From the NCBI GenBank assembly GCA_964493885.1, contig CAZBPV010000001.1:100703-164702 (forward strand): DNA of 64,000 nucleotides. Direction: 5' to 3'. The notes under the pieces are model-generated. The model ran no database searches, was not told where the DNA came from, and saw only the letters and a list, made by a program, of their open reading frames with translations. Positions 33,258 through 61,432 of this stretch are shown in pieces. Both the position numbers and the translations under genes were made by a program. This DNA comes from Candidatus Woesearchaeota archaeon. Its GTDB lineage: Archaea > Nanobdellota > Nanobdellia > Pacearchaeales > GW2011-AR1. The first letter of the stretch is position 1, and each line of letters opens with the position of its first letter.

Positions 33258-34625
33258 ATGTCAAAAAATATGTGGATTTTAACTGAAGAAAGACCTAAAA
33301 AAGAAGTTTTAAAAAAAATTATAGAAAAATTTTGTTTAGATAGAGGAATTAAAGCTAATTTTTCCACTCTCAGAATAAACCCTCTTATGGATGGTAATAA
33401 GTTTACATTCACTTATGAATTGGAGGGCATTAGTTCAAAAGATATAAATAAATTCTATATAAAGACAGTAAGTGGAAATAGTAGTTTTGTAGATTTTCTT
33501 ATATTCTTTCAAGAAAAAGAACCAATTGAAGGTGAAGAGCCACTTTATGCCATTGAGGAAACAAAAACCGATGATAGTGAATCAAGAAATACTGGGGTTT
33601 ATCAAAGATGTTCTAAATTTGTCTATCTTAACTTTTATTATCCTAATTGTAAGAAGATAATGCTTTATAATTTGAGGGTTATTCAAAAAGATAAACCAAC
33701 ACAAACAAATATATTCGGGACAAGAATGTTATTAACTTTGGGGGTAGAGATATTGGGTAAAAGATTAGATCCAGAAGTTTTCAAAAGATTTGATAATCTT
33801 GAGGATTTAATTAGTTTCAAAGAAGCGATGAGAAAAGCTCCTAAAGGAAATACTCCTATATTCATAACTAAAGATACAAATAGCATTTCTGTATCTGGTA
33901 GGTTATTTAAGGCAGGAGGTTTGAGCCACGATCCTAATATGGGGGCATTATCCTTAATCTGTCAAACTATCCGAAAATTGGGTTGGGATAAAGAAATAAA
34001 AATCATATTACATGGATTATCTCAAAAGAATCTAACTGGAAGAAATAAATTTATTAAAATTGCAAATAAATTGAACATTAAATTAGATGGATTAAATTTA
34101 CCAACAAGTGATTTATCTGAAAAATATTGGCATTACGAAAGAAATTCAGAAAAAATAGGAACTATTTTTGTTCATTTGATTTTAGAAGAATTAAATGGAA
34201 TAAAATCAATATATGAAAATCATGCCGGTTGTGAAAGAGGATATTTATATTGCCCGAGTGGAATTTGTATAGCGATTCATAAGTACATTGAGAATAAAAA
34301 AGAAAATGGAGCAATACCCAAATTGCCTGATTTGATTATCCTTAATGAACCAGAAAGTAGATTATATGAATTTGAGGGAAAAACTTCTGTAAATGTTAAT
34401 GAAGGAATATCGGAGATAAACCTTTTTGGAATTATAGAAAAAGAATATTTAAAGAAATATTACCCCAAATATGCGGTTGAAAGGGGAGTAATTCTATTTG
34501 GAGGTAATGAAGATAGAATCAAGGAAAAAGAAGTAATTTTCTTGATGACTTCTAATGGAAAGATAGTGTTATCTAAAAATACCCCAAAAATTATCTTAGA
34601 CGCTTTGAATAATCTTAATTCTTAA
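33258..34625 (+). CDS. Candidate type II restriction endonuclease (PD-(D/E)XK motifs)
   Basis: SFVDFLIFF...PLYAIEETK (D...ExK) and PDLIILNE...LYEFEGK. The gene is convergent with the Dam-like MTase gene and overlaps it by 11 nt. Confidence 0.45.
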   Translation: MSKNMWILTEERPKKEVLKKIIEKFCLDRGIKANFSTLRINPLMDGNKFTFTYELEGISSKDINKFYIKTVSGNSSFVDFLIFFQEKEPIEGEEPLYAIEETKTDDSESRNTGVYQRCSKFVYLNFYYPNCKKIMLYNLRVIQKDKPTQTNIFGTRMLLTLGVEILGKRLDPEVFKRFDNLEDLISFKEAMRKAPKGNTPIFITKDTNSISVSGRLFKAGGLSHDPNMGALSLICQTIRKLGWDKEIKIILHGLSQKNLTGRNKFIKIANKLNIKLDGLNLPTSDLSEKYWHYERNSEKIGTIFVHLILEELNGIKSIYENHAGCERGYLYCPSGICIAIHKYIENKKENGAIPKLPDLIILNEPESRLYEFEGKTSVNVNEGISEINLFGIIEKEYLKKYYPKYAVERGVILFGGNEDRIKEKEVIFLMTSNGKIVLSKNTPKIILDALNNLNS

Positions 34626-35655
34626 CCTCTACCAAAAACAAAAGTTCTTTAAGATCTTCTTTAAGCCCGCTTCCATTAGAATTACTTTTGTACCTTCTAT
34701 ATTCTTTATGGTAGACTTTAACCTTCCCCTTCTCAGATAATATCCTCTTTATTTCCTCACATGGAATTATCCCTTCACTATTATAACTTAAAAGAATAAA
34801 TTTGCATTTTGCATTTTTTATCAAATCTTCAAAAACCCGTATGCATTTAGAGGAATAACAATAATTTGATTTTTGCTTTTCATAATATCTTAACCCTGTT
34901 TTATTATTTATTATCTCTTTATCCCAAACAGCAATCGTTTCTAATAAATGGTAATTTGTAGCATATTGCCTATTATTATAGGGAGGATCAATATAAAGAA
35001 TATCACAGGATATCTCTTTAATTAATTTATTAGAATCTTCTTTATGGCATTCATGTTTTAATTCACTTTCGATTAATGTTGGGATTTCTAATAACAATGG
35101 TTTAAATTTTCTTGGATCATCGATTTTCATAAATGCCCCATAAGTTCCAGCGATATTTGAGACGGAAGGAACAACCTCTAAAAGAGAACATAATAAGATA
35201 TAAAACTCCTCATCAGTTATCTTTTTACTATCTTTCCATTCTTGAAGTTTATCTCGGATAGCATCTATTTTTTTAGCATTTTCGGAGGAGAAATAATTTC
35301 TAGTATGTTCTTTATCTTCTGTCCCCTCTGGACAATAATTATTATAAATAAAACCTTTCTTTCCATTTAACTCATTAAGAAAAGAGATTACTTTGAAGAT
35401 ATCTGGATTCTTAATATCCTCCGATAACCCTTCAAAAGAAGGAACCTTATTATTACAAATATAAGCTCTTTCAAAAACATAGGAATAAGTCATAAAATCA
35501 TTTGAGATTATTCTAAAACCCTTTTTCTTAAAAAACTTAGAAACGCTTGTAGTTCCGGAAAAAATATCACAGAATATTCCCTTGGGAAGATTATTCTCAG
35601 TAACAACTGAATAAATAAATTCTAAGAGTTTTGATTTATTCCCAATATATCTCAT
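34615..35655 (-). CDS. D12-class (Dam-like) N6-adenine DNA methyltransferase
   Basis: MRYIGNKSKLL start, FCDIFSGTTSV (motif I) and YIDPPYNNRQY (motif IV). Confidence 0.85.
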   Translation of the reverse strand: MRYIGNKSKLLEFIYSVVTENNLPKGIFCDIFSGTTSVSKFFKKKGFRIISNDFMTYSYVFERAYICNNKVPSFEGLSEDIKNPDIFKVISFLNELNGKKGFIYNNYCPEGTEDKEHTRNYFSSENAKKIDAIRDKLQEWKDSKKITDEEFYILLCSLLEVVPSVSNIAGTYGAFMKIDDPRKFKPLLLEIPTLIESELKHECHKEDSNKLIKEISCDILYIDPPYNNRQYATNYHLLETIAVWDKEIINNKTGLRYYEKQKSNYCYSSKCIRVFEDLIKNAKCKFILLSYNSEGIIPCEEIKRILSEKGKVKVYHKEYRRYKSNSNGSGLKEDLKELLFLVEVKN

Positions 35656-36194
35656 TTTTCTTTTTTGAATATTTTAATCTTATCAAACAATTCCTGTATG
35701 CTCTTTAGTTCTTCATCATATAATACATAATTGTCTAAATATCCATTATTCTCTATTCGATTGATTATTAATAAATCTTTTTTGGAAAACCAGCCAAGCA
35801 ATACTCCCTCTTTCCTATCGGGATACAATCTTACAGAAATATAAATATCTTTAGGTTTCTTCCTAAATTGCTCTACCATCTCCAGAGTTCTTGTATGAAA
35901 CTCCTGTGTTCTAGTCTTAATATCTATTGTTGATTTGTCAGGTAAGATGAAATCATATGAATCGGGATCTTTATGACTTGTTTTATCTTCTTCAAAGTTA
36001 ATATTATTCTCTATCAGAAACATTTTGAATATTTTTTCACCAAGTTTTCCTTCGAACATCTTTCTCTGTTTAGCATCCAAACCTCCCTCATGAAAATCAT
36101 GTCGATTAGAAGTAAATTTTTTTGAAATAATGGCGTAAATCCACGCTTCTTTAATTAGTTCATCTGAAATTTTATATATTTTTCTTAGAATCAT
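35652..36194 (-). CDS. Small PD-(D/E)XK-like nuclease candidate, the R subunit between two MTase genes
   Basis: DPDSYDFILPDKSTIDIKTRT (D...D-x-K). Coding overlaps with both flanking MTase genes. Confidence 0.4.
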   Translation of the reverse strand: MILRKIYKISDELIKEAWIYAIISKKFTSNRHDFHEGGLDAKQRKMFEGKLGEKIFKMFLIENNINFEEDKTSHKDPDSYDFILPDKSTIDIKTRTQEFHTRTLEMVEQFRKKPKDIYISVRLYPDRKEGVLLGWFSKKDLLIINRIENNGYLDNYVLYDEELKSIQELFDKIKIFKKEK

Positions 36195-37161
36195 CTTCTT
36201 CTTTCCTAAATATCAGAATATATTGGTGAAGTTGATTAGCAACAAAAGAGAAAGGATATCCATAAGGATAGAGATTTAATGTTTTATCATACCAGATTTT
36301 ATATCCTTTAAATTGAAGTCCATCAATTTTTGAAAGACTTGAGACTATATCTGCATGTAAAAGGTTATGATGGTTCTTACTTGGTTGCATATCTTTACAA
36401 AATACTACAAGATAACCTCTATTCTTTAAAAATTTTAATGATTTTTTTATAATTATTTCAAACTCCCCAAAAAATTCTTCATAACCGATATTCCCTAAAT
36501 CTCTTTCGTCCTCTGTAAAGTTGCCTTTATCTTTTCTATCCCCCCCCGTTCTCTTTTTAGAAAGCATATTAGCATAGGGAGGATCTGTTAAGATTAAATC
36601 AAATTCATGAGAGATAACCTCCGGGATTTTATCAAGATTCCTCGCATCTTGTTTTATTGTGATCTGTTGTTTTAATCCTTCTTGATTAGCTACTTTTTTA
36701 TAAACTTCTAAATAATTTTGTTCTAAATCTATGCCGACAGCATGTCTTATGGGATCACATAAAGAAGCTCCTAATAATGTTCCTCCTACACCTACAAATG
36801 GGTCTAAAACCCATCCATCTGCTTTTGTAAAAAATCTAATTAGATCCCTCATTAGAGTAGGGGGTTTTGGAGATGGATGAATCTTCCTAAGTTTATGTCC
36901 TACCGAATCCTTTCCATTAGTAGTATAATGGGTAGGGATTATAGAATCCTGCAAGAATTTCCAAAGTTCAAGTTCATCTTCATTTGAGGCAAAATCTGTT
37001 TCCATAATAGAGTTTATAAAATGAGTCCATTCTTTACCAGTTAAATCATTTAATTTATTTCGAATATCATATGTTCCCCTTTGTCCCAAATCTCTTCCAT
37101 ATTTCTTAACTTTAGGAGCACCTTCAATTAATCTCTTTAATTCCTCTTTTATCATAAACAA
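36172..37161 (-). CDS. N6/N4 DNA methyltransferase (motif I before DPPY), containing a G8 homopolymer
   Basis: VLDPFVGVGGT (motif I) and LILTDPPYANM (motif IV). The C8/G8 run at 36540..36547 encodes TGGD. Confidence 0.8.
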   Translation of the reverse strand: MFMIKEELKRLIEGAPKVKKYGRDLGQRGTYDIRNKLNDLTGKEWTHFINSIMETDFASNEDELELWKFLQDSIIPTHYTTNGKDSVGHKLRKIHPSPKPPTLMRDLIRFFTKADGWVLDPFVGVGGTLLGASLCDPIRHAVGIDLEQNYLEVYKKVANQEGLKQQITIKQDARNLDKIPEVISHEFDLILTDPPYANMLSKKRTGGDRKDKGNFTEDERDLGNIGYEEFFGEFEIIIKKSLKFLKNRGYLVVFCKDMQPSKNHHNLLHADIVSSLSKIDGLQFKGYKIWYDKTLNLYPYGYPFSFVANQLHQYILIFRKEEDDSKKNI

Positions 37162-37303: not shown

Positions 37304-40300
37304 CTAGTTTTTAGCGGTTTTTATAATCTTATCTAAATTAGTCTTTAGGTATCTTAAATCGATGGTTTTTCCAAATCTAGAATAATTTTTTACCTTATTT
37401 CTATTGGTTACAACAAAAAACCATTCATCATAGCCTTGATTTAATAATTCTATTTTAGTTTTCAAGTGATTTACATTAGAAAGTACTGCTCCGGTTTCTA
37501 CTTCTATGGCTTGTCTTTTATTATTCAAGATAAATATTACATCTGCAGTTTTAGTTAAAGAAATTTGTGCATTAATCTTATTTTTATTTAGATAGTTCGC
37601 AATATCATGCATCACGAAGAAATGTTTTTCAGATTCCTTAAATCTAGGTTTTAGCAAATAGTATTCTTCTTTTTCAGAATTAATGCTTTTCTGTTTAGAG
37701 ATTACATAGTTCTTAGCTAGAAGATATTTCACCTCATTTTCATTCAAATCCTTTTTTCTAAAGAATCTTTGACTTTCATCAACCTTAATATCTATTCTTT
37801 TAGCAAGTTCTTTCTTCTTTTTTTGGGCTTTCTTTTTTTGCTTTAATTCGGGTTTTTTTACTTCGATTTTAGATTCTGTCTCAAGTATCTTAATCTCCTT
37901 TACTTCTTCAACCGGATTTTTATCTTCTTTCACTATTTTTTCTGTATCTATTACCCTTTCAATCGGCTTTTTTCCATTAGCCAAAATCTCATCAGCATTA
38001 GTTGTGATTAAATCATGTTCTTTTTTAGAGGCAATTATCTTTAAGTTAGAATGCTCATCTTCAATAATCAAAATTCCCTCCCCCAACAATGCAGTCAAAA
38101 GAGCTATCCTTTCTGAGCTACTCAAATGGAATACTTTTTGAATGTCATCTATAACCGCAGGTTTTTGCTTTAATAAGATAGTATAGGAGCTATTTGCTAA
38201 AACAGATCTCCCTGCTTTAGAATTTAGCATATCTTCTACTTCTTGATTAATTAAGAATAAACCTAGATTAAACTTCCTGCAGGTTTTAACTATTTCAAAG
38301 ATATAAGACGCTTCATGGGTTTTGCTTAATAAGGACCAAGCCTCATCTATTACTAACAATTTCCTCTCTAAATCTCCCTTCATCTTAGTATAAACATAAT
38401 CTAAAACAAGGAACATCATAATCGGTTTTACTTGTTTTGGGAGATTTCCGATATCCACACATACAAATTTATTATTAAAATCTATTTTTGTATGCTTATT
38501 TAGGAAAGAGAATACTCCCGTAACATAGAGATTTAATCTATTCATTAAACTCCTTATTGTAGTCTTTTCTAGGCTAGTTGCTTTTTTTTCGATATTTTCT
38601 AGGATCTTCAGGAGATCGCTTAAAATCGGGGGCTCGTTGCCCCAAGAATCCCTATCATTCATATATATCCCTTTTCTTTCATAAGTTTCTGTTAAAGCCT
38701 TATCCAAGATAGCTTTTTGAGGCTCAGATATATCTCCTAACATAACAGGCATTAAATCCATTAAAGTAAGCCTTTTCTCGGGATAATCATGTCCCATTAA
38801 ATCTAAAGGATTAATTATAGTATTTGAGGTTCTGCTTAAATCTATTAATTGCCCATTAAATTTCTTTACTAGGTTTTTGTATTCTCCCTGAGGATCTATC
38901 ACAATAACTTTATTCCCATTAAGGAGATACCTCGAAATGAATAATTTAGCCATATAGCTCTTTCCTGCTCCAGAACTAGCTAAACAAATGCCATTTGCAT
39001 TAGAAAGTTTGAATATATCCCGAATTATTGGAATCTTATTTTTATTTAATCCAAACCATATTCCAGTATCATCAATCTTAAGGAAAGAAGATGTAAAAGG
39101 AAAAAACGCAGACAATCCTGTCGTAGTGATATTTCTCCTCATATTTATAGAATCTTGATTAAGAGGCAGGCAAGATTTAAACCCTTGAATCATTCTAAAA
39201 TCTGCTTGCTTAGGAATTATTAATAGAGAATTAAGCTCCGACTCTACTTTTTTAGTAAGCAAATCTAACTCTTTTTCTGTATCTGCCTTGCAATTAATAT
39301 ATAAACTAACATTAAACAACTTCTCATTTCCTTTTTGGAGATTCTCTAATGTCTTTAAAGTATCTTTATATTGAATTTGAAGGCTTGGGTTTAACTGGTT
39401 TTTAATCTTAGCTGAATACAAATCTGCCCTTTGTTTTTGTAGTTCTTTATTTAATATAATCATAGTTTGCTCTAGAAGTAATGGTTCGATATGCAATGAA
39501 AGATTAAAGTCTCCTAAGGAACTCACAATTTTATCCAAAAAACCAGATTCAACGATTCTAGGATAACCATGAGCATAGATTGTCCTACTGAACTTATCAT
39601 TTATTTTAACATGAGAGGGTTTATTCTCAATCTTTTCTGGCAGATAAGTATCTTTATTGCTAATATTAAACAATTGCGTTAAAAGAGCAGTTAATTGTTT
39701 ATTATGCAATCTCTGTGTTCTTAGGTTTAAACCATTCAGTCTTTCCTCGCAAATCTTTATTTGTATATCAATATCTGTTTTTTCAGGAATTACAACATAA
39801 AAATTCCTATTTGAAACGCTATTTTCACTTATTATCTCTTGCATATGCGTTTTATATTCTTCAAATATCTCTTTAGAGTGTTCATTATTTATCCTAGATT
39901 CCAAACTCTTGAAATAATCTTTTATGCTTAGATTCTCCGTAGTCATTAAAATTTGAATAGGAAAATCCAAGGAATTAAGAAATTTCTGAAATGCTAATGT
40001 TATAGTTTCCTGTTCTTTTTCTGGTTTAATTTGAAAGTTAATAGAATCTATTTTTAACACCGCTAATTTTTCTTTTTGAGTAAAGATTAGATTATCATCT
40101 ATCTTCTTAATTGCAAAAAATTGCTCTATCTTTTCTTTAAGGTTCATTTCTCTTAATCTATACCATGTAATCCACTTTTTGAGTTTAGATCCTAAATCAA
40201 AGAATATGAATCCAATTCCTAAAAGACAAGGGAATAAGGCAAAGATAAATCTTACATAAATATTTACCCCCCATTTAAAGAAGATTAAAAAGGAGATTGG

Positions 40301-40390
40301 AAAGAATACAAAAGCATAAGCTAGTTGGCTAAATGTTAAGCCAAACACTATTTTCTCTTTATATTCTAGTTGTTGAGGTATTTCGTACAT
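37304..40390 (-). CDS. Fusion protein: PrgI/VirB3-like N-terminus, VirB4/TrbE-type ATPase, and a C-terminal PD-(D/E)XK-like domain
   Basis: MYEIPQQLEYKEKIVFGLTFSQL plus 2 TM helices. Walker A is GICLASSGAGKSY and Walker B is LLVIDEAW. The C-terminus reads SEKHFFVMHD...ADVIFILNNKRQAIEVETG. Confidence 0.7.
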   Translation of the reverse strand: MYEIPQQLEYKEKIVFGLTFSQLAYAFVFFPISFLIFFKWGVNIYVRFIFALFPCLLGIGFIFFDLGSKLKKWITWYRLREMNLKEKIEQFFAIKKIDDNLIFTQKEKLAVLKIDSINFQIKPEKEQETITLAFQKFLNSLDFPIQILMTTENLSIKDYFKSLESRINNEHSKEIFEEYKTHMQEIISENSVSNRNFYVVIPEKTDIDIQIKICEERLNGLNLRTQRLHNKQLTALLTQLFNISNKDTYLPEKIENKPSHVKINDKFSRTIYAHGYPRIVESGFLDKIVSSLGDFNLSLHIEPLLLEQTMIILNKELQKQRADLYSAKIKNQLNPSLQIQYKDTLKTLENLQKGNEKLFNVSLYINCKADTEKELDLLTKKVESELNSLLIIPKQADFRMIQGFKSCLPLNQDSINMRRNITTTGLSAFFPFTSSFLKIDDTGIWFGLNKNKIPIIRDIFKLSNANGICLASSGAGKSYMAKLFISRYLLNGNKVIVIDPQGEYKNLVKKFNGQLIDLSRTSNTIINPLDLMGHDYPEKRLTLMDLMPVMLGDISEPQKAILDKALTETYERKGIYMNDRDSWGNEPPILSDLLKILENIEKKATSLEKTTIRSLMNRLNLYVTGVFSFLNKHTKIDFNNKFVCVDIGNLPKQVKPIMMFLVLDYVYTKMKGDLERKLLVIDEAWSLLSKTHEASYIFEIVKTCRKFNLGLFLINQEVEDMLNSKAGRSVLANSSYTILLKQKPAVIDDIQKVFHLSSSERIALLTALLGEGILIIEDEHSNLKIIASKKEHDLITTNADEILANGKKPIERVIDTEKIVKEDKNPVEEVKEIKILETESKIEVKKPELKQKKKAQKKKKELAKRIDIKVDESQRFFRKKDLNENEVKYLLAKNYVISKQKSINSEKEEYYLLKPRFKESEKHFFVMHDIANYLNKNKINAQISLTKTADVIFILNNKRQAIEVETGAVLSNVNHLKTKIELLNQGYDEWFFVVTNRNKVKNYSRFGKTIDLRYLKTNLDKIIKTAKN

Positions 40391-40391
40391 C

Positions 40392-41204
40392 TTATTTCAT
40401 TAAATTAACCATTTGTTTTAATTTATTGACTTTAAGTGCAGCTTTTACAATTACAAAAAGCAGTAGAAGTGCTGTTGAGATAATTATCATATCTAAAGTT
40501 CCGACCATTATCATTGTCTTAAAATCCCTAAAAGCAGACAACTCAGATATTTTAGAGCCTATGAGAAACATAATTGAATAAAAGAAAGGTAGAAAAATCA
40601 AGGTGCATAATCCATTGATGATTAATCTTCCATATTGGTTTAAGGGAGAGAAAAAATAAAAGAAAATTCCTATTGCAAAAAATATAACCCCCGAACTAAC
40701 AGAGATATATCTTAATAAGAGAAGAACTAAAACAACGATTAAGTGAATTAAATAAAGAATCCCAAAGACTAAATCAAATCCAAAATTGTAATAATGACTT
40801 AGTGTTAATTGAAAGAAATTGTTTCCGACTAAATTTAATATTGTCTTTGTTAGTGCAGAGGAGATTGCAATAATTAAGTCATAAAGGTGGTAGCTTCCTT
40901 GAACAAGAATCATCATGATGATTATACTCTTTAAATCTCCTTTTGCCTCTGTTCTTTTTTCAGGAGATTCTGCAGAAACTATAAATTTCAATCCGATCCA
41001 TACTAAAAGCAATCCATAAAACATTGAGAGAATATAAACAATAATTCCCCAAATGCTTGCAAATACTGAAATATTGACTGGTTCTGATAAAAACTTATGA
41101 ACAAGATTAAGAAAAGGAGTGCATGCTAAATTGATTGCATCAAGAATAAACTCAAAGAGAGTCTCAACTATGCATGCCCCTAAATTTGTCAAACTGCATT
41201 CCAT
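40392..41204 (-). CDS. Polytopic membrane protein in the VirB6/TrbL (CedA/TedA-like) position
   Basis: At least 6 hydrophobic helices. There is a 1-nt gap to the ATPase gene. The assignment rests on context only. Confidence 0.4.
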   Translation of the reverse strand: MECSLTNLGACIVETLFEFILDAINLACTPFLNLVHKFLSEPVNISVFASIWGIIVYILSMFYGLLLVWIGLKFIVSAESPEKRTEAKGDLKSIIIMMILVQGSYHLYDLIIAISSALTKTILNLVGNNFFQLTLSHYYNFGFDLVFGILYLIHLIVVLVLLLLRYISVSSGVIFFAIGIFFYFFSPLNQYGRLIINGLCTLIFLPFFYSIMFLIGSKISELSAFRDFKTMIMVGTLDMIIISTALLLLFVIVKAALKVNKLKQMVNLMK

Positions 41205-41205: not shown

Positions 41206-41529
41206 TTAACCCAGTATTAGATTAACTACAAAAGGAGCTGCCCAAATAACCATCAATCCAATAATCACATACATAATCATATTCTTTGCGTTCTCTCTTT
41301 TCATTGGATCTGCCCCACTTGTGATGTAGGTTATTCCTGCAAAAAGCATCACTATTCCTGCGATGATAGTAGCAGAATACTTAACTAAGTTATAGACAGT
41401 AGTCAATGGTTGCAAAATCTCTGAAAAATTGTCTGAAGCACTAACCAAGACAAGCTGAACTATCAGCAAAGCCAAAAATCCCAAAATAACTACTATTCTC
41501 TTATCTCCTCTGCATTCTTTATATGACAT
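41206..41529 (-). CDS. VirB2/TrbC-pilin-like small protein
   Basis: Signal-like N-terminus VVILGFLALLIVQLVLVSA followed by two hydrophobic helices separated by SGADPMKRENAKN. A GGAGG sits 6 nt upstream of the ATG. Confidence 0.45.
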   Translation of the reverse strand: MSYKECRGDKRIVVILGFLALLIVQLVLVSASDNFSEILQPLTTVYNLVKYSATIIAGIVMLFAGITYITSGADPMKRENAKNMIMYVIIGLMVIWAAPFVVNLILG

Positions 41530-41891: not shown

Positions 41892-42054
41892 ATATATAGA
41901 TAAGTTAAGGAAAGAGGCAGAAGAAAAAGGGGTGACTCTTTCCGAGTTATGCAGACAGAAATTAAGATGTTTTACCCAATTGGATAAGATAGAAACAATG
42001 CTTGAAAAATTTTGCAAAGATGGAAAAGAATATTCCCTTAAACCAAATAATTAA
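41851..42054 (+). CDS. Ribbon-helix-helix (CopG/Arc-like) protein, a possible controller for the downstream methyltransferase
   Basis: SHIHIVIETEYIDKLRKEAEEKGVTLSELCRQKL fits a strand-helix-helix pattern. Confidence 0.5.
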   Translation: MKKNSHIHIVIETEYIDKLRKEAEEKGVTLSELCRQKLRCFTQLDKIETMLEKFCKDGKEYSLKPNN

Positions 42055-42673
42055 AGGAGATTGTATAGAATTTTTGAAAACTCTCCCCAATAATTGTATT
42101 AACCTGATTATTACGGATCCTCCTTATGGTGACAATGTGGCTTATGGTTGGAACAATAAAACAATAAAAAATAATGAGAATCCTTTAATTTGCTGTCAGG
42201 CTTTAGCAGAATGCTATCGGGTTCTGAAACAAAACTCCTCTCTTTATACTTTTACTAACTGGAAACACTACCCTTTCCTAGTGGAATTCATAACAAGATA
42301 CACTAAATTCAGAATAAGGCATTTAATTGTCTGGAAAAAACATAACTTTGGACTAGGATGGGCATTTAGGCATCAATATGAGCTAATTCTCGTTTTAGAA
42401 AAAGGTAAGCCCAAGTATAATTTAACTAATTTCTCCGATGTTCAAACTTGCAGTCATATTAATCATAACAAGGAAAATCACCCTCATGAAAAGCCGATTG
42501 ATTTAATCCATAAGATGATAGAACATAGCTCAAAGAAGGGAGATTTAATTCTAGATCCTTTTTGTGGAAGTGGGGCTGTTTGTTTAGCTTGCCAGCAGGC
42601 AAATAGGGATTTTATTGGAGTTGAGTTAGATAAGAGATATGTTGAGATGGCTCGAGAGAGGGTTAAGTTTTAA
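42020..42673 (+). CDS. Beta-class N6/N4 DNA methyltransferase (DPPY before FxGxG)
   Basis: LIITDPPYG (motif IV) is N-terminal and ILDPFCGSGAV (motif I) is C-terminal. The start is set at the ATG at 42020. Confidence 0.85.
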   Translation: MEKNIPLNQIIKGDCIEFLKTLPNNCINLIITDPPYGDNVAYGWNNKTIKNNENPLICCQALAECYRVLKQNSSLYTFTNWKHYPFLVEFITRYTKFRIRHLIVWKKHNFGLGWAFRHQYELILVLEKGKPKYNLTNFSDVQTCSHINHNKENHPHEKPIDLIHKMIEHSSKKGDLILDPFCGSGAVCLACQQANRDFIGVELDKRYVEMARERVKF

Positions 42674-44669
42674 GAGGATTACTTCCTTTTTCTTTAGCTA
42701 ATCGAATAACCACAGAACGTTCAGTCAATTTTTTCGCAGTATTTAAGTCTTCAACTAATTTCTCCTTTTCTAGTCTTAATTTAGAATCTAAGAATTCATA
42801 AGCCATATCAAATTCATCAAAAATATCACACCACCTTTTAACATATATCTTAAAACTACCTACAGAATAAGCTAAGTTAGGTTCACCATGATTCTTGTTA
42901 CTTTCTATTTGTCCTCCAATAAATCCTTCATCATCAAAATTATTCCCTATTAAAATAAAATCCCATTTAGCATGATTAGATTTAAACTCGGGTTGTTGGA
43001 GTATCATCATCCTATATTTATCTACTTGAAGGTATTCTTTTGAACCTAATTTGACTTTGGGACTTTTTAATTCGACTAAGACATTTTTAATAACATCTCT
43101 TTCTTTTCTTCGCTTACATAGAAAAAGATCTAATCTTTTTTTTCGATATTCTTCTATTTTTATCTCTGGTTTTTTGGACTCCCCATCTAATATCCAAAGA
43201 TAATTTTCTAAGGATTTTTGAAATCCTTCATCTTCAGAAACAAGATTATATTGCTCACCAAAAATCCAATAATTATTAGCTATAATTTTTTGAAGATGAT
43301 CTCTTTCATTGGCATTCAATTCTTTTTCAAAAACCAATTTCTTTAAACATTCAATAACCCTAAATCTTTCAGTTAGAAGATTTATTGTTTTTATAATCCT
43401 CCCCATCTTAGTATATTGCAAAACTCCTTGTAACTCAGTTCTTTCTTGTGGGGTTAATTTAACAATTTGATCGATTATATCTAATACTCTCTCTCTTTCA
43501 TCAGAATCTAAGACTAAATCTAAAAAACCCATAAAAATTTTTCTCTGATCAGGTTTTAAATCCTTAAATACAATTGGATGAATCTCATAAATCTCCTTTA
43601 TCACTTCTTTTAAATCCTCATTTTTTATTTTCTCAAAACTATCTTCAACATCTTTTTTTATTATTCCTTCATCCTCTAATTGAATTATTAATTTGTCAGA
43701 ATTTTCTTTTAATAAAGGCTTTCTTTTTTGTAAAAGATAATTATAAATCTCGCTATGTATTTCCTTAAAAATCTTATCATTCCTTGTTAGTCCCATCAAC
43801 GCTTTCTGAGAATCTTCTTTGGAATGAAAATTAAAATCTTTAAAATATTTATTGGCTATATAGATGCTTGGATAGAAAAAATCCCCTTGTCTATTAAATG
43901 AGCTGTATTCTTTATAGATTTCATTTAATTCAGAATCTAAATAATATATTTTAGATCCTTCTTCATTTATTGAATCCTTCCATCGTATATATTTAACCTT
44001 AAATGATTCTTTTTCTCCAGTGGGATTGATTTTAAACTCATCTTTTTCGGCAATTATACTGGAATAATCTAGTTCTTTATTATTTAAAGTTATTTTATAA
44101 TTTTTATTTTTATTCAATTCTAAGAACCATCCAAATTCTTTTTTTAGATATTCCTGCAATTCCTTAATTAAATTATCTTTGTTTACCTCTTTTAAAAAAC
44201 CTTCAAAAATTACATTTGTACCTAAAGGATTCTTACTTTCTTTGGGAGAATCATTTTCATAATTTTGTATATCATTCGATCCTATCTTTATTACATATTT
44301 CATATTCTTATCCTTATCTAAGTAAATTGTTTCCCATCTAACTCTACAAGCAAATTTAAAGAAAGTAAGTCTACCATACCCATTTCTACCATGTAATCTT
44401 GAATGATGAAAATCATCTTCATCTTCTTTGTGAGAATCATAAAAAGGCTTGAATTTTTTTGTAAGCTGAGTATAATCTATGCCAGATCCGTTATCCTTAA
44501 TTTCTAATTTCTGGAGGATTCCACCATTAAAGCCACAGACAATTTCTACATTATCTGCTCCAGCATCAAAACCATTCCAGATATATTCAGAAACAGCCCT
44601 ACAAAAATTATATTTATTTAAAACCTTTCTAATTCCTTTAGAACTAATCTCAACTTTTTCTTTCATCAT
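42663..44669 (-). CDS. GHKL/MORC-like ATPase fused to a Shedu (DUF4263)-like PD-(D/E)XK nuclease domain
   Basis: The N-terminus has AVSEYIWNGFDAGADNVEI (N box) and IKDNGSGID (G1 box). The C-terminus has NNYWIFGEQY...KKRLDLFLCKRR...NVLVELKSPKVKL...LQVDKY. Confidence 0.55.
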   Translation of the reverse strand: MMKEKVEISSKGIRKVLNKYNFCRAVSEYIWNGFDAGADNVEIVCGFNGGILQKLEIKDNGSGIDYTQLTKKFKPFYDSHKEDEDDFHHSRLHGRNGYGRLTFFKFACRVRWETIYLDKDKNMKYVIKIGSNDIQNYENDSPKESKNPLGTNVIFEGFLKEVNKDNLIKELQEYLKKEFGWFLELNKNKNYKITLNNKELDYSSIIAEKDEFKINPTGEKESFKVKYIRWKDSINEEGSKIYYLDSELNEIYKEYSSFNRQGDFFYPSIYIANKYFKDFNFHSKEDSQKALMGLTRNDKIFKEIHSEIYNYLLQKRKPLLKENSDKLIIQLEDEGIIKKDVEDSFEKIKNEDLKEVIKEIYEIHPIVFKDLKPDQRKIFMGFLDLVLDSDERERVLDIIDQIVKLTPQERTELQGVLQYTKMGRIIKTINLLTERFRVIECLKKLVFEKELNANERDHLQKIIANNYWIFGEQYNLVSEDEGFQKSLENYLWILDGESKKPEIKIEEYRKKRLDLFLCKRRKERDVIKNVLVELKSPKVKLGSKEYLQVDKYRMMILQQPEFKSNHAKWDFILIGNNFDDEGFIGGQIESNKNHGEPNLAYSVGSFKIYVKRWCDIFDEFDMAYEFLDSKLRLEKEKLVEDLNTAKKLTERSVVIRLAKEKGSNPLKT

Positions 44670-44717: not shown

Positions 44718-45863
44718 TTAATTCTCCACCACAATCAACCCTTTATCCACCAACTGCAATATCCTCTGCATTTGACTCTCCATATTCCCCATTTTATCCT
44801 TTAAAATTTCATTCTCTCTTTTGAGTCTTACTTGCTCTTGTTCTAATTCAGTCTTTGTTGTATCTATCAGAATATCTTCTTCACTAATTGTGTCTCTCAT
44901 TCCTAACATCTCACTATAATAATAAATCTTATCCGACTTCTTCCAACCAAATCTGAATTTTAAAGCAGATTCTGATTTATACCTAGGAAGCCAATAACAA
45001 CAAGAGCAATGTCTGAAATCATACATCGTTAATTCAGAATACTTTTTTCCTGCGGGGCTTTTGCAGTCTCCAAATAATCTCCCTGCGATTCTCTTGAGAT
45101 ATTGATTTACTGCAGGAGGGCTGATTTTAAACAAATAATCTTCAGGAGAGAGTCTATTGGACTGAACGAACTCCTTAACTAGCTCGGAACAGAGCATAAG
45201 TTTAATCCTTCTCCCAAAAGTCTTACTTATTTCCTCTCTGATGCAAACCTCTTTATAGTCTTTATAGAAATCTGAAACCTTAATATTCATTAATTCTGTT
45301 GGAGATCTTATGCCCGAATCAAATAAAAACATAATCAAAACTCTGTAATTAGGTTTAACATTCTCAGCAAGTTTCTTTATCTGATTCTCATCTAAATATA
45401 CCCATTCAGGTTTTTCTTGACTCATATCCAGATCAATAGTTATATCCTCTACTTCCTCCCCTCTTTTCCGGCTAGATTTTTGATGCCAATGCCAAAAAGC
45501 TTTGAAAACTTTAATGTAATCTGATACGGATTTGTAGATACCGCCATCTAATCTTGTAATTATCCCATTTCTCATGTCTGAAAAATAATTATGCAGTTGC
45601 TGTTCATTTATCTTCCTTAAATCGCTTATCCCAAACCTCTTTTCAAATTGCTTAGACATGAATATCATTCTCTGCTTTAAATTATTGAGTCGAATAAAAC
45701 TTCTAGAGCCTTTTGAAGATCCTATATTTAGCCCCTTTTCCATATCTGCTAGATAAGATAATATAAACTCAGAGTTGCTTTTAGAAATGTCCGGAATGAT
45801 TAATGAGTTGTTTTCTTTCCATTTAAGGTATCTTTCTTTGTGTTTATAGGGATCTATTTTCAT
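44718..45863 (-). CDS. Tyrosine recombinase/integrase
   Basis: FDSGIRSPTEL (catalytic Arg region), MYDFRHCSCCYW (HxxR-type box) and a C-terminal Tyr-rich KIYYYSE. The gene is adjacent to the tRNA 3' end. Confidence 0.8.
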   Translation of the reverse strand: MKIDPYKHKERYLKWKENNSLIIPDISKSNSEFILSYLADMEKGLNIGSSKGSRSFIRLNNLKQRMIFMSKQFEKRFGISDLRKINEQQLHNYFSDMRNGIITRLDGGIYKSVSDYIKVFKAFWHWHQKSSRKRGEEVEDITIDLDMSQEKPEWVYLDENQIKKLAENVKPNYRVLIMFLFDSGIRSPTELMNIKVSDFYKDYKEVCIREEISKTFGRRIKLMLCSELVKEFVQSNRLSPEDYLFKISPPAVNQYLKRIAGRLFGDCKSPAGKKYSELTMYDFRHCSCCYWLPRYKSESALKFRFGWKKSDKIYYYSEMLGMRDTISEEDILIDTTKTELEQEQVRLKRENEILKDKMGNMESQMQRILQLVDKGLIVVEN

Positions 45864-45946: not shown

Positions 45947-46059
45947 CGCCCCAACCGGGAGTCGAACCCGGATCGCATCCGTTCTGCGAATCTGAAACCA
46001 TATTTGAAGGGTTTCATTCTCGCGACAGGGATGAGTCATAGCCGCTAGACCATTGAGGC
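45947..46059 (-). tRNA. tRNA-Asp (GUC) with a 41-nt intron at or next to the canonical position in the anticodon loop
   Basis: Hand fold: acceptor GCCTCAA/TTGGGGC with discriminator G, anticodon stem CATCC/GGATG, loop CTGTC(G/A)C, T-arm CCGGG-TTCGACT-CCCGG. The intron contains a TGAAACC/GGTTTCA hairpin. Total is 113 nt, made of 72 plus 41. Confidence 0.75.
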
Positions 46060-46109: not shown

Positions 46110-46117
46110 TTTAAATA
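46110..46117 (+). promoter_or_regulatory. TATA box TTTAAATA, 29 nt upstream of the ATG at 46139
   Basis: Read directly. Confidence 0.6.
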
Positions 46118-46138: not shown

Positions 46139-46960
46139 ATGGCTGATGCAAAAAAGGGGTATGTAAAATGGCTTGTTACAGCAATAACATTATCTTTTCT
46201 TCTATTTATTATATTTATTGGAATATACTTTTATCTTTCATTTAATAAGGAATTTAATGCAATAACTTCCACTCTAAATGTTTTAAGAAATGGAGGAGCA
46301 AACCTTGAATTAATAAATAACATAAAAACTAATCTTGCTGATGCAACTTTTTTATTCACCTCTCAGGCAGCTACTTTTATTGCAGCAATAATCTGCCTTA
46401 TAATAGGATTATGGTATAGCCTTCAATTATACCTGGTTGAAAAAAGAAATGCCTTGATTGACCCTTTAACTCAATTATATAATAGAAAGGCAGTTTTCTT
46501 TGAACTAAAAAGGGAATTAAGAAAATCAGAAAGATACGGACACCCAACAAGTGTTGCAATGCTTGATTTAGATTTTTTCAAGAAATACAATGATAATCTC
46601 GGGCATATTGCTGGTGATAGATTATTAAAAAGATTCGCAATGATTCTAAAAGAAAATGTAAGAGAGTATGATATTTATGGAAGATATGGCGGGGAAGAAT
46701 TTATTATTGTCTTTCCAGAAACAGGTGTTAGTGATGCAGGAAAAGTATGCCACAGAATACGTGAATCTCTTGAAAGAACTAAGTTTTATGGACAGGATAA
46801 AATGCCTTTTAAGAAAATAACAGTAAGTGTTGGTGTTGCAGAGGTGAAAGGAAGAAGAAAAATAAAAAAAGAGACACTAATTCATAATGCAGATGTTTGC
46901 CTGTACAAGGCAAAAGAATCAGGCAGAAATCAAGTCCAAGAGTGCCCTTTTGGTGCGTGA
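46139..46960 (+). CDS. Membrane-anchored diguanylate cyclase (GGDEF domain with an RxxD I-site)
   Basis: Two N-terminal TM helices. Motifs seen: DPLTQLYNR, LDLDFFKKYND, REYDIYGRYGGEEF and LYKAKESGRNQV. Confidence 0.85.
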   Translation: MADAKKGYVKWLVTAITLSFLLFIIFIGIYFYLSFNKEFNAITSTLNVLRNGGANLELINNIKTNLADATFLFTSQAATFIAAIICLIIGLWYSLQLYLVEKRNALIDPLTQLYNRKAVFFELKRELRKSERYGHPTSVAMLDLDFFKKYNDNLGHIAGDRLLKRFAMILKENVREYDIYGRYGGEEFIIVFPETGVSDAGKVCHRIRESLERTKFYGQDKMPFKKITVSVGVAEVKGRRKIKKETLIHNADVCLYKAKESGRNQVQECPFGA

Positions 46961-47083: not shown

Positions 47084-48349
47084 TCATTTTTTCTTTTCAA
47101 TCTTTTTCATTCCATTCATATAAGGCTGTAAAATTTTAGGAATATTTATACTTCCGTCTTTATTTTGATTGTTTTCAATTAATGATATAAGTAATCTCGG
47201 AGTTGCCAACCCGCTTCCATTTAGAGTATGAACAAACTTTAATCCATCTTTTCCCTGATATCTTGTATTCATTCTTCTTGCCTGGAAATCAGTACAGTTG
47301 CTGCATGATGAAGTCTCAAGATATTTCTTCATTGCAGGGCTCCAGACTTCTAAATCATAAGTCTTGGCAGAAGCAAATGAAGCATCAGCTGTTGCAAGAA
47401 CAATTACTCTGTAAGGAAGTTCTAAAAGTTGCAATAATTTTTCAGCCCTCTTTGTCATTTCCTCATGCAATTGCCATGAATCTTCTTGTCTACAAATATA
47501 AACCATCTCAACTTTTTCAAATTCATGAAGCCTAAATATCCCAGGAGTCTCGCTTCCATGTTTCCCAGCTTCTGTCCTATAACACTGAGTAAAAGCAACA
47601 AACTTTTTAGGAAGCTCTTTTTCAACAAGAGTCTCATCAGCATAAATATTTGTTACAGGAACCTCTGCAGTGGGAATTGGATAAAGCCCTTCTCTTGTCT
47701 TGTATAAGTCACATTCAAATTTAGGAAGATTTCCAGTTCCAAACATTATTTTTTCATTAACTAATTGAGGAGGATTTATCTCAATAAACCCATCTTTAAC
47801 ATGAAAATCAAGCATAAAATTAATCAAAGCTCTCTCTAATCTTGCTAAATCTCCTTTAAATAAATAAAAACCACTTCCAGATATCTTTGCTCCTCTTTCC
47901 ATATCCAGCAATCCAAGATTCTTAAGAAGCTCGTCATGACTCTTTACTGGAAAATCAAACTTAGGAAGTTTTCCGCCTTTTCTAATCTCTTTATTTTTAT
48001 CTTCTCCTCCAACAGGCACACTCTTGTCTTGAAAATTAGGTATTACAGCAAGTAAATTAAATATCTCTAACTCTAATTTTTTTCTCTTTTCTCCTTGCTT
48101 TTCAATCTCAATAGGAATCTTTTTTGCTTCAGCAATCTCTTTTTTAGCTGTTTTGCCTTGTTTTTTTAATTCATTTATTTTCTGAGAAATCTCATTTCTT
48201 TGTTTTCTTAATCCATCTTCTTTGTATTTTATTTTTCTCCACTCTGTATCAAGTTTGATAATCTTTCCAACATCAACTTCATACCCTCTTTCTTTAACAC
48301 TCTTTTTTACAAGCTCAGGATTTTCCCTGATATGCTTTATATCTATCAT
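47084..48349 (-). CDS. serS: Seryl-tRNA synthetase
   Basis: MIDIKHIRENPELVKKSVKERG with a coiled-coil arm and class II motifs (FRLHEFEKVE, GSGLATPR). Confidence 0.9.
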   Translation of the reverse strand: MIDIKHIRENPELVKKSVKERGYEVDVGKIIKLDTEWRKIKYKEDGLRKQRNEISQKINELKKQGKTAKKEIAEAKKIPIEIEKQGEKRKKLELEIFNLLAVIPNFQDKSVPVGGEDKNKEIRKGGKLPKFDFPVKSHDELLKNLGLLDMERGAKISGSGFYLFKGDLARLERALINFMLDFHVKDGFIEINPPQLVNEKIMFGTGNLPKFECDLYKTREGLYPIPTAEVPVTNIYADETLVEKELPKKFVAFTQCYRTEAGKHGSETPGIFRLHEFEKVEMVYICRQEDSWQLHEEMTKRAEKLLQLLELPYRVIVLATADASFASAKTYDLEVWSPAMKKYLETSSCSNCTDFQARRMNTRYQGKDGLKFVHTLNGSGLATPRLLISLIENNQNKDGSINIPKILQPYMNGMKKIEKKK

Positions 48350-58711: not shown

Positions 58712-60451
58712 ATGGCAAATATTCGTCAACCAATAGTGACTGTCTGCGGGCACGTAGACCATGGAAAAACATCTATCCTTGATGCTATTAGGGGTAGCTG
58801 TGTCCAGGAAGCTGAAGCAGGAGGAATAACTCAAAAGATTTCCTTTACAATGTATCCTATAAACAAACTAAAAACAGCTTTCCCATTAATAGAAAAATCA
58901 GGGATTAAATTAAATATCCCAGGTTTCTTATTTATAGACACTCCCGGACATGCAGCATTTACTAATCTTAGAAAAAGAGGGGGAGCTCTTGCTGACCTAG
59001 CAGTTTTAGTTATTGATATAAATGAAGGAATCAAGCCTCAGACAGCAGAAGTAATACAGATTCTAAAATTAAATAAAACTCCTTTTGTAATTGCAATGAA
59101 TAAAATAGATAATATCTCTGGGTGGAGAACTAAAAAAGATTCGGGAATAAGAGAAAGCATTGAATCTCAGCCTCCGCATGTTAATCAAGTCTTTCAAGAA
59201 AGATACATGACACTAATAGGTTCTTTAAACAGCTACGGGTTTGATGCAGATTTATTTTATAATATAGAAGATTTCACAAAAAAAATAGCACTAGTTCCAG
59301 TATCTGCTCGTACAAAAGAAGGAATACAAGAACTAATAACAATGCTTTGTGGTTTAAGCCAGAAATATCTTGCAAATAGATTAGAATTAGGAAAAGATGC
59401 AAAAGGAGTAATGCTTGAAGTAAAGACAATTAAAACAATTCACTATAATGAAGCAATTCTTTATGACGGAGAACTCTCAAAAGAACAGGAAATTGCAATC
59501 TCAAATCTAGAAGGAGAACCAATTATAACTAAGATAAGAATTCTTGAAGAAATAGAGCCATTATGCGCTAAATTTAAGCCAAAAGAAAAAGTAAAAGCTT
59601 CAACTGGATTAAGAATGCAGTTAATTGAAAAGGCAGGAATTCTTCCAGGAATGCCTTTTGAAGTATTCAAAGGAAATCTAGATAAAATAAAAAAGAAATT
59701 CAAAAAAGAGATTTCAGAAAACATAAAAACTCAAAAGCAAGGAATAATTGCCAAGGCAGATTCACTAGGAAGCCTTGAAGCACTGCTTGTATTACTAAAA
59801 GAAAATCATGTGCCTGTTGTAAAAGCAGGAATAGGAAGCATAAATAAAATAGATTTAACTTCGGCAAAAGCAAATCTTGATATAAATGAGCTTGATGCAG
59901 TAATTATTGGATTTAATGTTAATATGGATGAAGAAGCAAAAGAAATTCAAAAAAATGTAAAAGTAATAACTAATGATGTTATCTACAAATTAATTGACGA
60001 TTTAGTTTTATACAGAAAGGAAAAATCAAAAGAAATTGAAAAAAGAAGATTAATGGAATTAGCAACTATTGGGAAAGCAGAGATTCTTCATCAGTATGTG
60101 TTTAGAAATACAAAGCCAGCAATCTTTGGAGTAAGAATTAATGCTGGAAAAATCAGGCCAGAACTTACTTTAATTGATGAAACAGGAGAAAAAGTAGGGC
60201 GATTAAAAAATATTCAGTTAGACAAAGCCTCAGTTAAAGAAGCTACAGAAGGAATGGAAGTAGCAGTATCTCTTCCAGGGGTTAATTTTGAAAGGCAAGT
60301 AAAAGATAGAAAATTCTTATTCTCTGAACTTTCTGAAAGCCAGTTCAGGACATTTAAGAAAAATAAAGATTTACTAACTCAGTCAGAAATCAAGGCTCTT
60401 CAGGAAATTGCTGACATAAAACGAAAAATCAAGCCTGAATGGGGAATTTAA
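58712..60451 (+). CDS. infB: Translation initiation factor aIF5B
   Basis: RQPIVTVCGHVDHGKTSILDAIRG, DTPGH and NKID, with aIF5B domain order. Confidence 0.9.
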   Translation: MANIRQPIVTVCGHVDHGKTSILDAIRGSCVQEAEAGGITQKISFTMYPINKLKTAFPLIEKSGIKLNIPGFLFIDTPGHAAFTNLRKRGGALADLAVLVIDINEGIKPQTAEVIQILKLNKTPFVIAMNKIDNISGWRTKKDSGIRESIESQPPHVNQVFQERYMTLIGSLNSYGFDADLFYNIEDFTKKIALVPVSARTKEGIQELITMLCGLSQKYLANRLELGKDAKGVMLEVKTIKTIHYNEAILYDGELSKEQEIAISNLEGEPIITKIRILEEIEPLCAKFKPKEKVKASTGLRMQLIEKAGILPGMPFEVFKGNLDKIKKKFKKEISENIKTQKQGIIAKADSLGSLEALLVLLKENHVPVVKAGIGSINKIDLTSAKANLDINELDAVIIGFNVNMDEEAKEIQKNVKVITNDVIYKLIDDLVLYRKEKSKEIEKRRLMELATIGKAEILHQYVFRNTKPAIFGVRINAGKIRPELTLIDETGEKVGRLKNIQLDKASVKEATEGMEVAVSLPGVNFERQVKDRKFLFSELSESQFRTFKKNKDLLTQSEIKALQEIADIKRKIKPEWGI

Positions 60452-60883: not shown

Positions 60884-61432
60884 ATGTTCAAGTTTAATAT
60901 CTCAACAAAAGACGGAAAAACCTACAAGCTAGAAGCAGAAGCTTTAGGATTAATTCAGAAACAGCTTGGAGATGTTATTAAAGGAGAAGAAATCTCTCCA
61001 GATTTAGCAGGATATGAATTAAAAATTACTGGTACAAGTGATTTATCAGGATTTGCTTCTATGGAAGAAGTAGAAGGAATTGGATTAAAAAAAGTTCTTT
61101 TAACTTATGGAAAAGGTTTGCACAAGCGTCCAAAAGGACTTACAAAAAAAGGAAAGGCTCCAATAAAAGGATTAAGAATGAGAAAAACAGTGAGAGGAAA
61201 AATTATATCTGAGGCAATTTCTCAAATTAATACTGCTGTAATTAAACAAGGAAGCAAGAAACTGTCAGAAATTTTCCCAGAACAAAACAAAATAGAAGCT
61301 CCGCCTGCTCAAGAACAAGCAGAATCAGTAGTTGAAAGCCCGCAGCAAAAAGAACAAAAAGCTGAATTAGCTAATCCTGAACAAGAACCAAAAGAAAAGC
61401 TTCCTCCTAAAGCAGAAGAGCAAGTAGAATAA
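60884..61432 (+). CDS. rps6e: 30S ribosomal protein eS6 with a Glu/Pro/Gln-rich C-terminal extension
   Basis: MFKFNISTKDGKTYKLEAE...GYELKITGTSDLSGF...GLRMRKTVRG. Confidence 0.85.
   Translation: MFKFNISTKDGKTYKLEAEALGLIQKQLGDVIKGEEISPDLAGYELKITGTSDLSGFASMEEVEGIGLKKVLLTYGKGLHKRPKGLTKKGKAPIKGLRMRKTVRGKIISEAISQINTAVIKQGSKKLSEIFPEQNKIEAPPAQEQAESVVESPQQKEQKAELANPEQEPKEKLPPKAEEQVE

Follow-up and report, generated by a model that had tools for sequence, protein, structure and literature searches.

Locus and protein architecture

The locus described here lies in a 64-kb stretch of DNA, called the window in what follows, from contig CAZBPV010000001.1 of a Candidatus Woesearchaeota assembly (GCA_964493885.1). 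The subject is a gene for a protein with two transmembrane (TM) segments and a GGDEF domain, which is predicted to be a diguanylate cyclase, that is, to make cyclic di-GMP (c-di-GMP). Here we surveyed its domains, catalytic residues, family, genomic surroundings and possible partners. All coordinates are window positions, and labels of the type L0xx stand for related loci which carry members of the same family. The gene and the segments of its product are as follows.

46139..46960 (+): gene of the 2TM-GGDEF protein, an open reading frame (ORF) with a Pfam GGDEF match of 151.5 bits; predicted membrane-anchored diguanylate cyclase
46169..46237 (+): predicted TM helix 1, about residues 11-33, with a Lys-rich N-terminus before it (hydropathy; AlphaFold2 helix 3-52)
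46238..46348 (+): short, predicted extracytoplasmic tip of a helical hairpin, about residues 34-70 (conservation 0.39; AlphaFold2 turn 53-55)
46349..46450 (+): predicted TM helix 2 and cytoplasmic stalk or linker, residues 71-104 (hydropathy; AlphaFold2 helix 56-105; conservation)
46451..46933 (+): GGDEF catalytic domain, residues 105-265 (full Pfam model; PDB matches; Foldseek)
46661..46672 (+): primary inhibitory site (I-site) R175-E-Y-D178, from the PleD alignment (R359/D362)
46688..46702 (+): active-site (A-site) motif G184-G-E-E-F188, equivalent to PleD 368-372 and invariant in the family

The ORF starts with ATG and codes for 273 amino acids (aa). The GGDEF model (PF00990) is matched over its whole length (1-161 of 161) by residues 105-265 with 151.5 bits and E = 2.3e-44, the cut-off being 23.8. 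The translation contains DPLTQLYNR at 108-116, LDLDFFKKYND at 142-152, REYD at 175-178 and RYGGEEF at 182-188, and the gap between RxxD and GGEEF is exactly five residues. The original prediction had named a 273-aa protein with two TM helices, a full GGDEF domain, these same motifs and an RxxD inhibitory site five residues before GGEEF; the ORF, the hydropathy profile, the complete Pfam model and the translation all agree with it.

Two TM segments were located by hydropathy at about residues 11-33 and 71-95. The hydropathy peak of 2.56 covers residues 11-29, where a TM segment is found in all full-length family members. The stretch of residues 71-104 carries an invariant Y98 and a family-specific VEKRNALID motif and runs on into the GGDEF domain. 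An AlphaFold2 model based on a family alignment of 51 sequences has a mean predicted local distance difference test score (pLDDT) of 88.4 and a predicted TM-score (pTM) of 0.73, with pLDDT 94-98 in the GGDEF domain. In this monomer two long helices (3-52 and 56-105) make a hairpin with a turn at 53-55, and the second helix enters the GGDEF fold directly. The Foldseek search of the model against PDB gave only diguanylate cyclases at probability 1.00 (SiaD, WspR, PleD, DgcR, DgcB), and the target-normalised TM-score reached 0.85-0.92 against the isolated GGDEF domains 3ign, 3i5b and 4zmm. By sequence, the GGDEF domain matched SiaD, PleD and WspR in PDB at 1e-31 to 1e-33.

Catalytic and inhibitory residues

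Residues were mapped by a phmmer alignment to PleD, the PleD literature number being the own number plus 184. In PleD we take D327 to bind Mg2+ and, together with E370/E371, to make up the metal-binding acidic residues; the equivalents here are D143 and E186/E187. K332, K442 and R446 are presumably phosphate contacts (here K148, K259 and R263), and N335 and D344 presumably recognise guanine (N151 and D160). We further take H340 to be the conserved residue of the GH motif (H156), R359 and D362 the primary I-site (R175 and D178), R366 the arginine of RYGGEEF (R182), GGEEF 368-372 the A-site motif (184-188) and R390 the secondary I-site (R206).

The canonical residue is present in the window protein at every one of these positions, and each is at least 98% invariant among 81 family members: R175, D178, GGEEF, D143 and R206 are invariant across the alignment, and N151, D160, K148, K259 and R263 are at least 98% invariant. 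In total 42 columns of this 81-sequence alignment, which includes proteins down to 36% identity, are at least 98% invariant, the functional residues among them. No catalytic residue is lost in the alignment to PleD. The position of PleD D344, which is Ser in the product-switching Hypr enzymes, holds an invariant Asp (D160), and the motif, metal and substrate ligands whose loss marks degenerate receptors are all intact and invariant. By sequence the window protein is thus apparently a GTP-specific, product-inhibited diguanylate cyclase.

The family of archaeal 2TM-GGDEF proteins

NCBI has an entry with the same sequence as the window protein (100% identity) under the name 'GGDEF domain-containing protein [Candidatus Nanoarchaeia archaeon]', and its taxonomy assigns the class Nanoarchaeia to Archaea; Nanobdellati (DPANN); Nanobdellota. 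Proteins of similar length (~260-295 aa) with 36-80% identity make up about 85 more clusters (formed at 90% identity), several of them labelled Pacearchaeota. Below the family the scores fall to bacterial REC-GGDEF and GAF-GGDEF proteins, which align over the catalytic domain only. RxxD followed by five aa and GGEEF is present in 86/86 members having the region, and the two TM segments stand at matching positions in the full-length members. The mean column conservation is lowest in the extracytoplasmic loop (0.39, vs 0.70 in the GGDEF domain).

The N-terminal 104 aa gave only six matches at E<=1e-3 in a phmmer search of 1.84 billion representative proteins, and the three strongest are 2TM-GGDEF-type proteins, two of them known family members; the membrane module is therefore, as far as sequence tells, lineage-specific. 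Contigs of metagenomes were searched with a six-sequence N-terminal alignment, which gave at least 13 loci. When GTDB species genomes were searched with the full protein, the matches listed were bacterial domains only, with no more than 45% identity and over the domain alone. A phylogenetic placement of the domain had been proposed with the original prediction, and in an unrooted neighbour-joining tree of the GGDEF domain alone the 84 family members were separated from the 50 closest bacterial domains by one bipartition (bootstrap 150/200). The possibility raised there, that the family is common and already characterised in this archaeal lineage, proved right in its first half only: about 85 clusters exist, automatically annotated at NCBI, and no characterisation was found in the literature searched.

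One family member (P0074, locus L006; GCA_048625535.1, JBMCQP010000055.1) is labelled 'Minisyncoccales bacterium', which belongs to the candidate phyla radiation (CPR), and lies on a 4.3-kb contig. This contig shows a TATA-like box at -29 as well as a fragment of a class II aminoacyl-tRNA synthetase 39% identical to the seryl-tRNA synthetase (SerRS) of the window. It is probably a mis-binned archaeal contig, and a real presence of the family in CPR bacteria could also account for it. In another locus (L095, 1630-3300) two intact 2TM-GGDEF paralogues of 261 and 258 aa stand in tandem, both with REMD, five aa and GGEEF; this pair is a lineage-specific duplication.

Archaeal context and promoter

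About 55 window ORFs of at least 100 aa were annotated with Pfam. The left flank of the GGDEF gene includes an Elp3-like protein and a threonyl-tRNA synthetase (ThrRS; 17343..19046) whose editing domain, PF08915 (159 bits), is specific to archaea, and the right flank includes uS10, aIF5B (58712..60451), eS6 (60884..61432) and aIF2-gamma (61474..62688). The archaeal surroundings which the original prediction had described (aIF2-gamma, aIF5B, eS6 and an intron-containing tRNA) are thereby borne out by Pfam and Rfam. The GC content of the window is flat at ~31%; the GGDEF gene has a GC of 0.32 and a GC at third codon positions (GC3) of 0.205, like the housekeeping genes. Its promoter element is the following.

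46110..46117 (+): TATA box TTTAAATA, starting 29 nt 5' of the GGDEF ATG

A TATA-type octamer starts exactly at -29 in 12 of the 57 window genes, out of 29 matches over all positions, and every other position has at most two; this placement is therefore not due to chance. The GGDEF gene, SerRS, ThrRS and eS6 are among the genes that have it (octamers at 46110, 48371-48378, 17314-17321 and 60855-60862), and the GGDEF gene, for which this architecture had been noted earlier, thus shares it with 11 other window genes. The position of the box implies a leaderless or near-leaderless GGDEF transcript, and the rigid spacing implies predominantly leaderless mRNAs in the source organism. A TATA-like box at -29 is kept 5' of the orthologues in L001, L006 and L007 and is weaker in L005; in L003/L004 the orthologues have AGGAG just 5' of the ATG instead.

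It has to be weighed whether the locus is a chimera of the assembly or a bacterial fragment binned wrongly, as c-di-GMP genes in archaeal metagenome-assembled genomes (MAGs) may be bacterial contamination (Galperin et al. 2018, PMC5847659), a caution given also for 70 archaeal HD-GYP ORFs (Galperin & Chou 2021, bioRxiv 10.1101/2021.11.05.467447), and as one family member carries the Minisyncoccales label. Against this stand the archaeal markers on both flanks of one contig, the archaeal TATA box at -29 and the flat regional GC. The junctions between integrase, tRNA, GGDEF gene and SerRS are moreover collinear with the independent assembly of a relative at ~70% nucleotide (nt) identity, and the same gene order recurs in assemblies made independently (ENA, JGI, Logan and NCBI). 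The chances of a chimera are accordingly regarded as minimal. It is supported that the gene is native to the archaeal contig, and the earlier argument against contig chimerism, which had been drawn from the promoter, now has the flanking markers, the GC and the gene order across assemblies beside it.

Other genes of the window and of the related loci were recorded as side observations. A 1430-aa ORF at 82-4374 (+) has a He_PIG Ig-like domain as its sole Pfam match and probably codes for a large protein of the cell surface or of adhesion. Near the GGDEF genes of L003 and L089 there are likewise giant proteins of the beta-helix or Laminin_G type. The stretch 23859-24710 (+) strongly matches the whole Pfam model UMPH-1 (233 bits), a pyrimidine 5'-nucleotidase family; this family is known mainly from eukaryotes and was unexpected in a DPANN archaeon. 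A PemK/MazF-type toxin gene is present at 10277-10633 (+), and a MazE-PemK pair stands directly 5' of the GGDEF orthologue in L089 (7118-7696).

The tRNA-Asp gene and the integrase island

On its 5' side the GGDEF gene is bordered by a tRNA gene, beyond which an island resembling an integrative and conjugative element (ICE) begins. It has a bacterial-type type IV secretion system (T4SS) and restriction-modification (R-M) genes, and an HNH-like ORF is also part of it.

45947..46059 (-): tRNA-Asp(GUC) with a 41-nt intron at 37/38 (Rfam, 44.1 bits), divergent from the GGDEF gene
44718..45863 (-): tyrosine integrase on the 3' side of the tRNA, first gene of the island (PHROG integrase, E = 8.4e-16)
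42663..44669: HATPase_c_3 protein (phrog_6203)
42002..42673 and 36172..37161: DNA methyltransferases
41206..41529: TrbC/VirB2-type pilin (T4SS)
40392..41204: TrbL-like protein (T4SS)
37304..40390: VirB4/TraC ATPase (T4SS)
34615..35655 and 33258..34625: type II R-M pair

The Rfam alignment of the tRNA shows a 44-position insert in the anticodon loop, and the gene was missed by ARAGORN run in bacterial mode. The orthologous tRNA-Asp at the same position in L001 (9836-9907, -), a relative at ~70% nt identity, has 72 nt and is without the intron, which is a recent gain or loss.

The island reaches from the integrase to ~33.2 kb (33200-45863). Its integrase and T4SS core are present at the same site in the relative L001/L091 and are collinear with L001 at 66-74% nt identity, with different cargo. 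An att-type repeat of the tRNA delimiting the island was searched for and none was found, so the far boundary is placed from the collinearity with L001.

The GGDEF gene could be recently acquired cargo of this island, since the tRNA next to it has the integrase and the island, with its T4SS and R-M genes, no more than 300 bp away, and horizontal acquisition through the tRNA-Asp hotspot had been suggested in the original prediction. However, the tRNA stands between the gene and the island, which extend away from its 5' and 3' ends respectively. In L003/L004 the gene adjoins SerRS and no integrase is nearby, and its GC3 of 0.205 is typical of the genome vs 0.34 in the integrase. Because of the opposite side of the tRNA and the integrase-free pair in L003/L004, the gene was rejected as island cargo. 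The SerRS adjacency in other loci, the largely parallel divergence of the two genes (both below) and the distance to the bacterial relatives among the matches listed speak in the same direction, so the suggestion of acquisition through the hotspot does not hold and recent capture is rated very unlikely. Any transfer of the gene from bacteria must be ancient, because it keeps its position next to SerRS without an integrase and diverges roughly with SerRS.

Synteny, co-divergence and selection

The 3' neighbour of the GGDEF gene is the anchor of its synteny, and the exchanger gene considered below lies further along.

47084..48349 (-): SerRS, conserved syntenic anchor (Pfam), convergent with the GGDEF gene
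49364-51070 (-): Na+/H+ exchanger fused to TrkA_N (RCK_N), conserved in close relatives at a distance of two genes from the GGDEF gene

After clustering of all ORFs, SerRS was found on the opposite strand 0.5-5.3 kb downstream of the GGDEF gene in 12/21 family loci. In the closer relatives SerRS is followed by a conserved membrane protein, the Na+/H+ exchanger with TrkA_N and uS10. Archaeal hallmark genes stand near family members in seven independent contexts, which are the following.

L001/L091: uS10, diphthamide synthase
L005: Archease, RtcB
L007/L097: RadA, Rpo11, aIF2-beta
L088: TFE, GatD/GatE, deoxyhypusine synthase
L003/L004, L089 and the window itself: the remaining three contexts

The aa identities to the window proteins were compared for GGDEF and SerRS, and were 74/74% in L001, 78/82% in L090, 47/43% in L003 and 44/42% in L007; over 11 loci, including two same-species duplicate pairs, the correlation was r = 0.72. 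The two proteins are discordant in L092 (73% vs 47%) and L095 (43% vs 63%), a hint that recombination, replacement by a paralogue or transfer has taken place occasionally inside the lineage. The ratio of nonsynonymous to synonymous substitution rates (dN/dS) in the pair of window and L001 is 0.20 for GGDEF and 0.14 for SerRS. The SerRS synteny, the identity pairs, the correlation and dN/dS indicate long residence of the gene, mainly vertical descent and purifying selection.

These data also bear on the idea that the gene is a relic of some old transfer which is decaying and no longer has a function. It would fit the reductive nature of DPANN genomes and the fact that partner genes were not found. 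A dN/dS close to that of SerRS contradicts it, as do the functional columns that stay at least 98% invariant in distant members, the retention of the gene in highly reduced genomes and the tandem duplication in one locus with both copies intact. A relic is consequently considered extremely unlikely.

Interpretation and search for c-di-GMP partners

From the sequence, the gene probably codes for a genuine archaeal diguanylate cyclase, membrane-anchored and product-inhibited, which belongs to a family specific to the DPANN class Nanoarchaeia. The verdict is that of a predicted canonical enzyme in an unexpected domain of life.

Several points weigh against this interpretation. EAL, HD-GYP and PilZ domains had no Pfam match in the annotated window ORFs, as the original prediction had stated for this window, and are absent from the Pfam lists of ~10 related loci. 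A c-di-GMP riboswitch was found neither in the window nor in five related loci. The HD-GYP signature occurred 0 times in 321 kb of family loci vs three times in 847 kb of bacterial control loci; for EAL the absence rests on the Pfam scans, as the regular expression for EAL was without match even in the bacterial controls and is given no weight. A 2023 review reports c-di-GMP as undetected in archaea (PMC10249747). The tree that sets the family apart is an unrooted distance tree with 75% support, the taxonomic breadth and any bacterial family members are under-sampled in both collection scans, one member bears a CPR label, and the co-divergence with SerRS is imperfect. Dimerisation and signal input, as proposed below, were deduced from the model of a monomer.

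A phosphodiesterase and a receptor, which would complete a c-di-GMP system, were thus not found in the window and about 20 related loci, and as far as seen locally the cyclase looks 'orphan'. An HD protein in L003 and a DHH/DHHA1 protein in L088 were considered as phosphodiesterase candidates and set aside, the first being a generic HD and not HD-GYP and the second not specific. Control of the Na+/H+ exchanger in the manner of c-di-AMP and RCK_C was also rejected: there is no room for RCK_C after residue 519, and the adjacency looks like plain synteny. A role as a cyclase of anti-phage defence (Cas10 palm, or like the cyclic-oligonucleotide-based anti-phage signalling system CBASS) was discarded, as the GGDEF protein has no PADLOC match and no cas genes are nearby; weak or faint Pfam matches to Cas10-Cmr2_palm2, in some homologues only, reflect shared fold ancestry.

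The same lack of partners, and of c-di-GMP detected in archaea, would fit a GGDEF-fold enzyme or receptor with another role, such as the synthesis of 3',3'-cGAMP, c-di-AMP or linear pppGpG, or a nucleotide-binding scaffold, and Hypr-GGDEF enzymes prove that the fold can switch its product (cited in PMC10249747). But D160 is an invariant Asp where Hypr enzymes have Ser, and N151 is invariant too; with GGEEF and the Mg2+ and phosphate ligands intact the protein is not a degenerate receptor, and an invariant I-site makes sense only with c-di-GMP or a very similar dinucleotide as ligand. Another role is for these reasons judged rather unlikely.

If the protein is a product-inhibited diguanylate cyclase, its mechanism may be pictured as follows. 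The N-terminus and the GGDEF domain would be cytoplasmic, because of the positive-inside rule (K5, K6, K10) and the need for GTP, and the two TM helices would make a hairpin whose extracytoplasmic tip is short and variable, TM2 extending as a stalk helix straight into the GGDEF domain. The protein would dimerise through hairpin and stalk into a four-helix membrane bundle, with parallel TM2 stalks, similar to those of SiaD, DgcB and DgcR, bearing two GGDEF domains. The paired GTP-loaded A-sites would then condense two GTP into c-di-GMP, with D143 and E186/E187 as Mg2+ ligands, N151 and D160 recognising guanine, and K148, K259 and R263 holding the phosphates. The product would bind the I-site (R175xxD178 and R206), immobilise the domains and cap the level of the messenger by non-competitive shut-off. 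Such self-limitation may be the main control of an enzyme without a visible phosphodiesterase partner, and this agrees with an I-site that is conserved throughout the family. Cues from the membrane or envelope may adjust the activity via the register of the stalk helices. The variability of the hairpin tip speaks against a conserved sensor of small molecules, and the state of the membrane or envelope, or plain constitutive activity, is more likely as input.

At a broader level c-di-GMP may be a second messenger across a DPANN clade, made by one self-limiting membrane cyclase, with readers and removers unrelated to EAL, HD-GYP and PilZ; this is a tentative proposal to which we give somewhat less than even chances. 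If true, it would mean an archaeal c-di-GMP circuit with non-canonical effectors, which may control host attachment or the cell envelope, since DPANN organisms are thought to be episymbionts. In a radical variant neighbouring cells would receive or sense the dinucleotide, as a signal between domains of life.

Value of the findings

The field treats c-di-GMP as essentially bacterial, and archaeal GGDEF proteins 'need to be confirmed in archaeal contigs' (Römling 2022, PMC10086821). The window family supplies this confirmation through long contigs with flanking archaeal markers, archaeal promoters, conserved synteny, a divergence largely parallel to that of a housekeeping gene and invariant catalytic and feedback sites. 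Bulk surveys have counted 'c-di-GMP-related genes' in 6% of archaeal MAGs (PMC12781772) and diguanylate cyclases in ultra-small prokaryotes (PMC9938205); in the literature searched on c-di-GMP and GGDEF in DPANN lineages no description of the archaeal 2TM-GGDEF family was found. The evidence for a native, conserved and, judged by its residues, apparently functional DPANN gene family goes beyond what this literature records.

The use of c-di-GMP by archaea becomes a concrete question on a defined 273-aa protein, and DPANN genomes become a place to seek receptors of c-di-GMP, and routes of its degradation, that are not canonical. Little is new in the mechanism, the enzyme being a canonical member of a known family, and for this reason the advance is one of phyletic distribution and biology and not of mechanism.

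Comparison with known systems

The GGDEF domain has 35-39% identity (E ~1e-32) and the same fold as those of PleD (1w25, 2v0n, 2wb4) and WspR (3bre, 3i5a), with identical A-site GGEEF, Mg2+, guanine and phosphate ligands, RxxD five residues before the motif and the secondary Arg (PleD R390 = R206). Unlike these enzymes the window protein is without REC domains and would use a 2-TM helical hairpin for input and dimerisation instead; its gene is archaeal, with a TATA-box promoter predicted to be leaderless, and no cognate phosphodiesterase or effector was identified.

The best PDB matches by sequence and fold were SiaD (7e6g), DgcB of Caulobacter (6ttr) and DgcR (6zxb/6zxm), which share a long N-terminal helix leading straight into GGDEF and a similar size (~260-290 aa). 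These proteins are soluble, whereas the helices of the window protein are predicted to be membrane-embedded, and for its first 104 residues no homologue was detectable beyond the family. SiaD requires the activator SiaC and DgcR carries a REC domain, in which both differ from the window protein.

YfiN has a folded periplasmic sensor and a HAMP domain, and SadC has multiple TM segments. In contrast, the extracytoplasmic part of the window protein would be a variable hairpin tip of ~35 residues, and there is no HAMP. Common to it and to YfiN/TpbB (4iob, 7a7e) and SadC (4wxo), which were also among the PDB matches, is a TM-anchored GGDEF enzyme with the catalytic domain in the cytoplasm.

Among archaea, RCIX2274 of Methanocella arvoryzae (CAJ37382) is reported to be the sole ORF with GGDEF (and HD-GYP) in any complete genome of an archaeon (PMC5847659; bioRxiv 10.1101/2021.11.05.467447), and like the window gene it places a GGDEF domain in an archaeal genome. 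RCIX2274 is a single REC-PAS-PocR-GGDEF-HD-GYP protein of one methanogen with a bacterial-type architecture, whereas the window family is a lineage-wide DPANN family of single-output 2TM proteins with conserved synteny.

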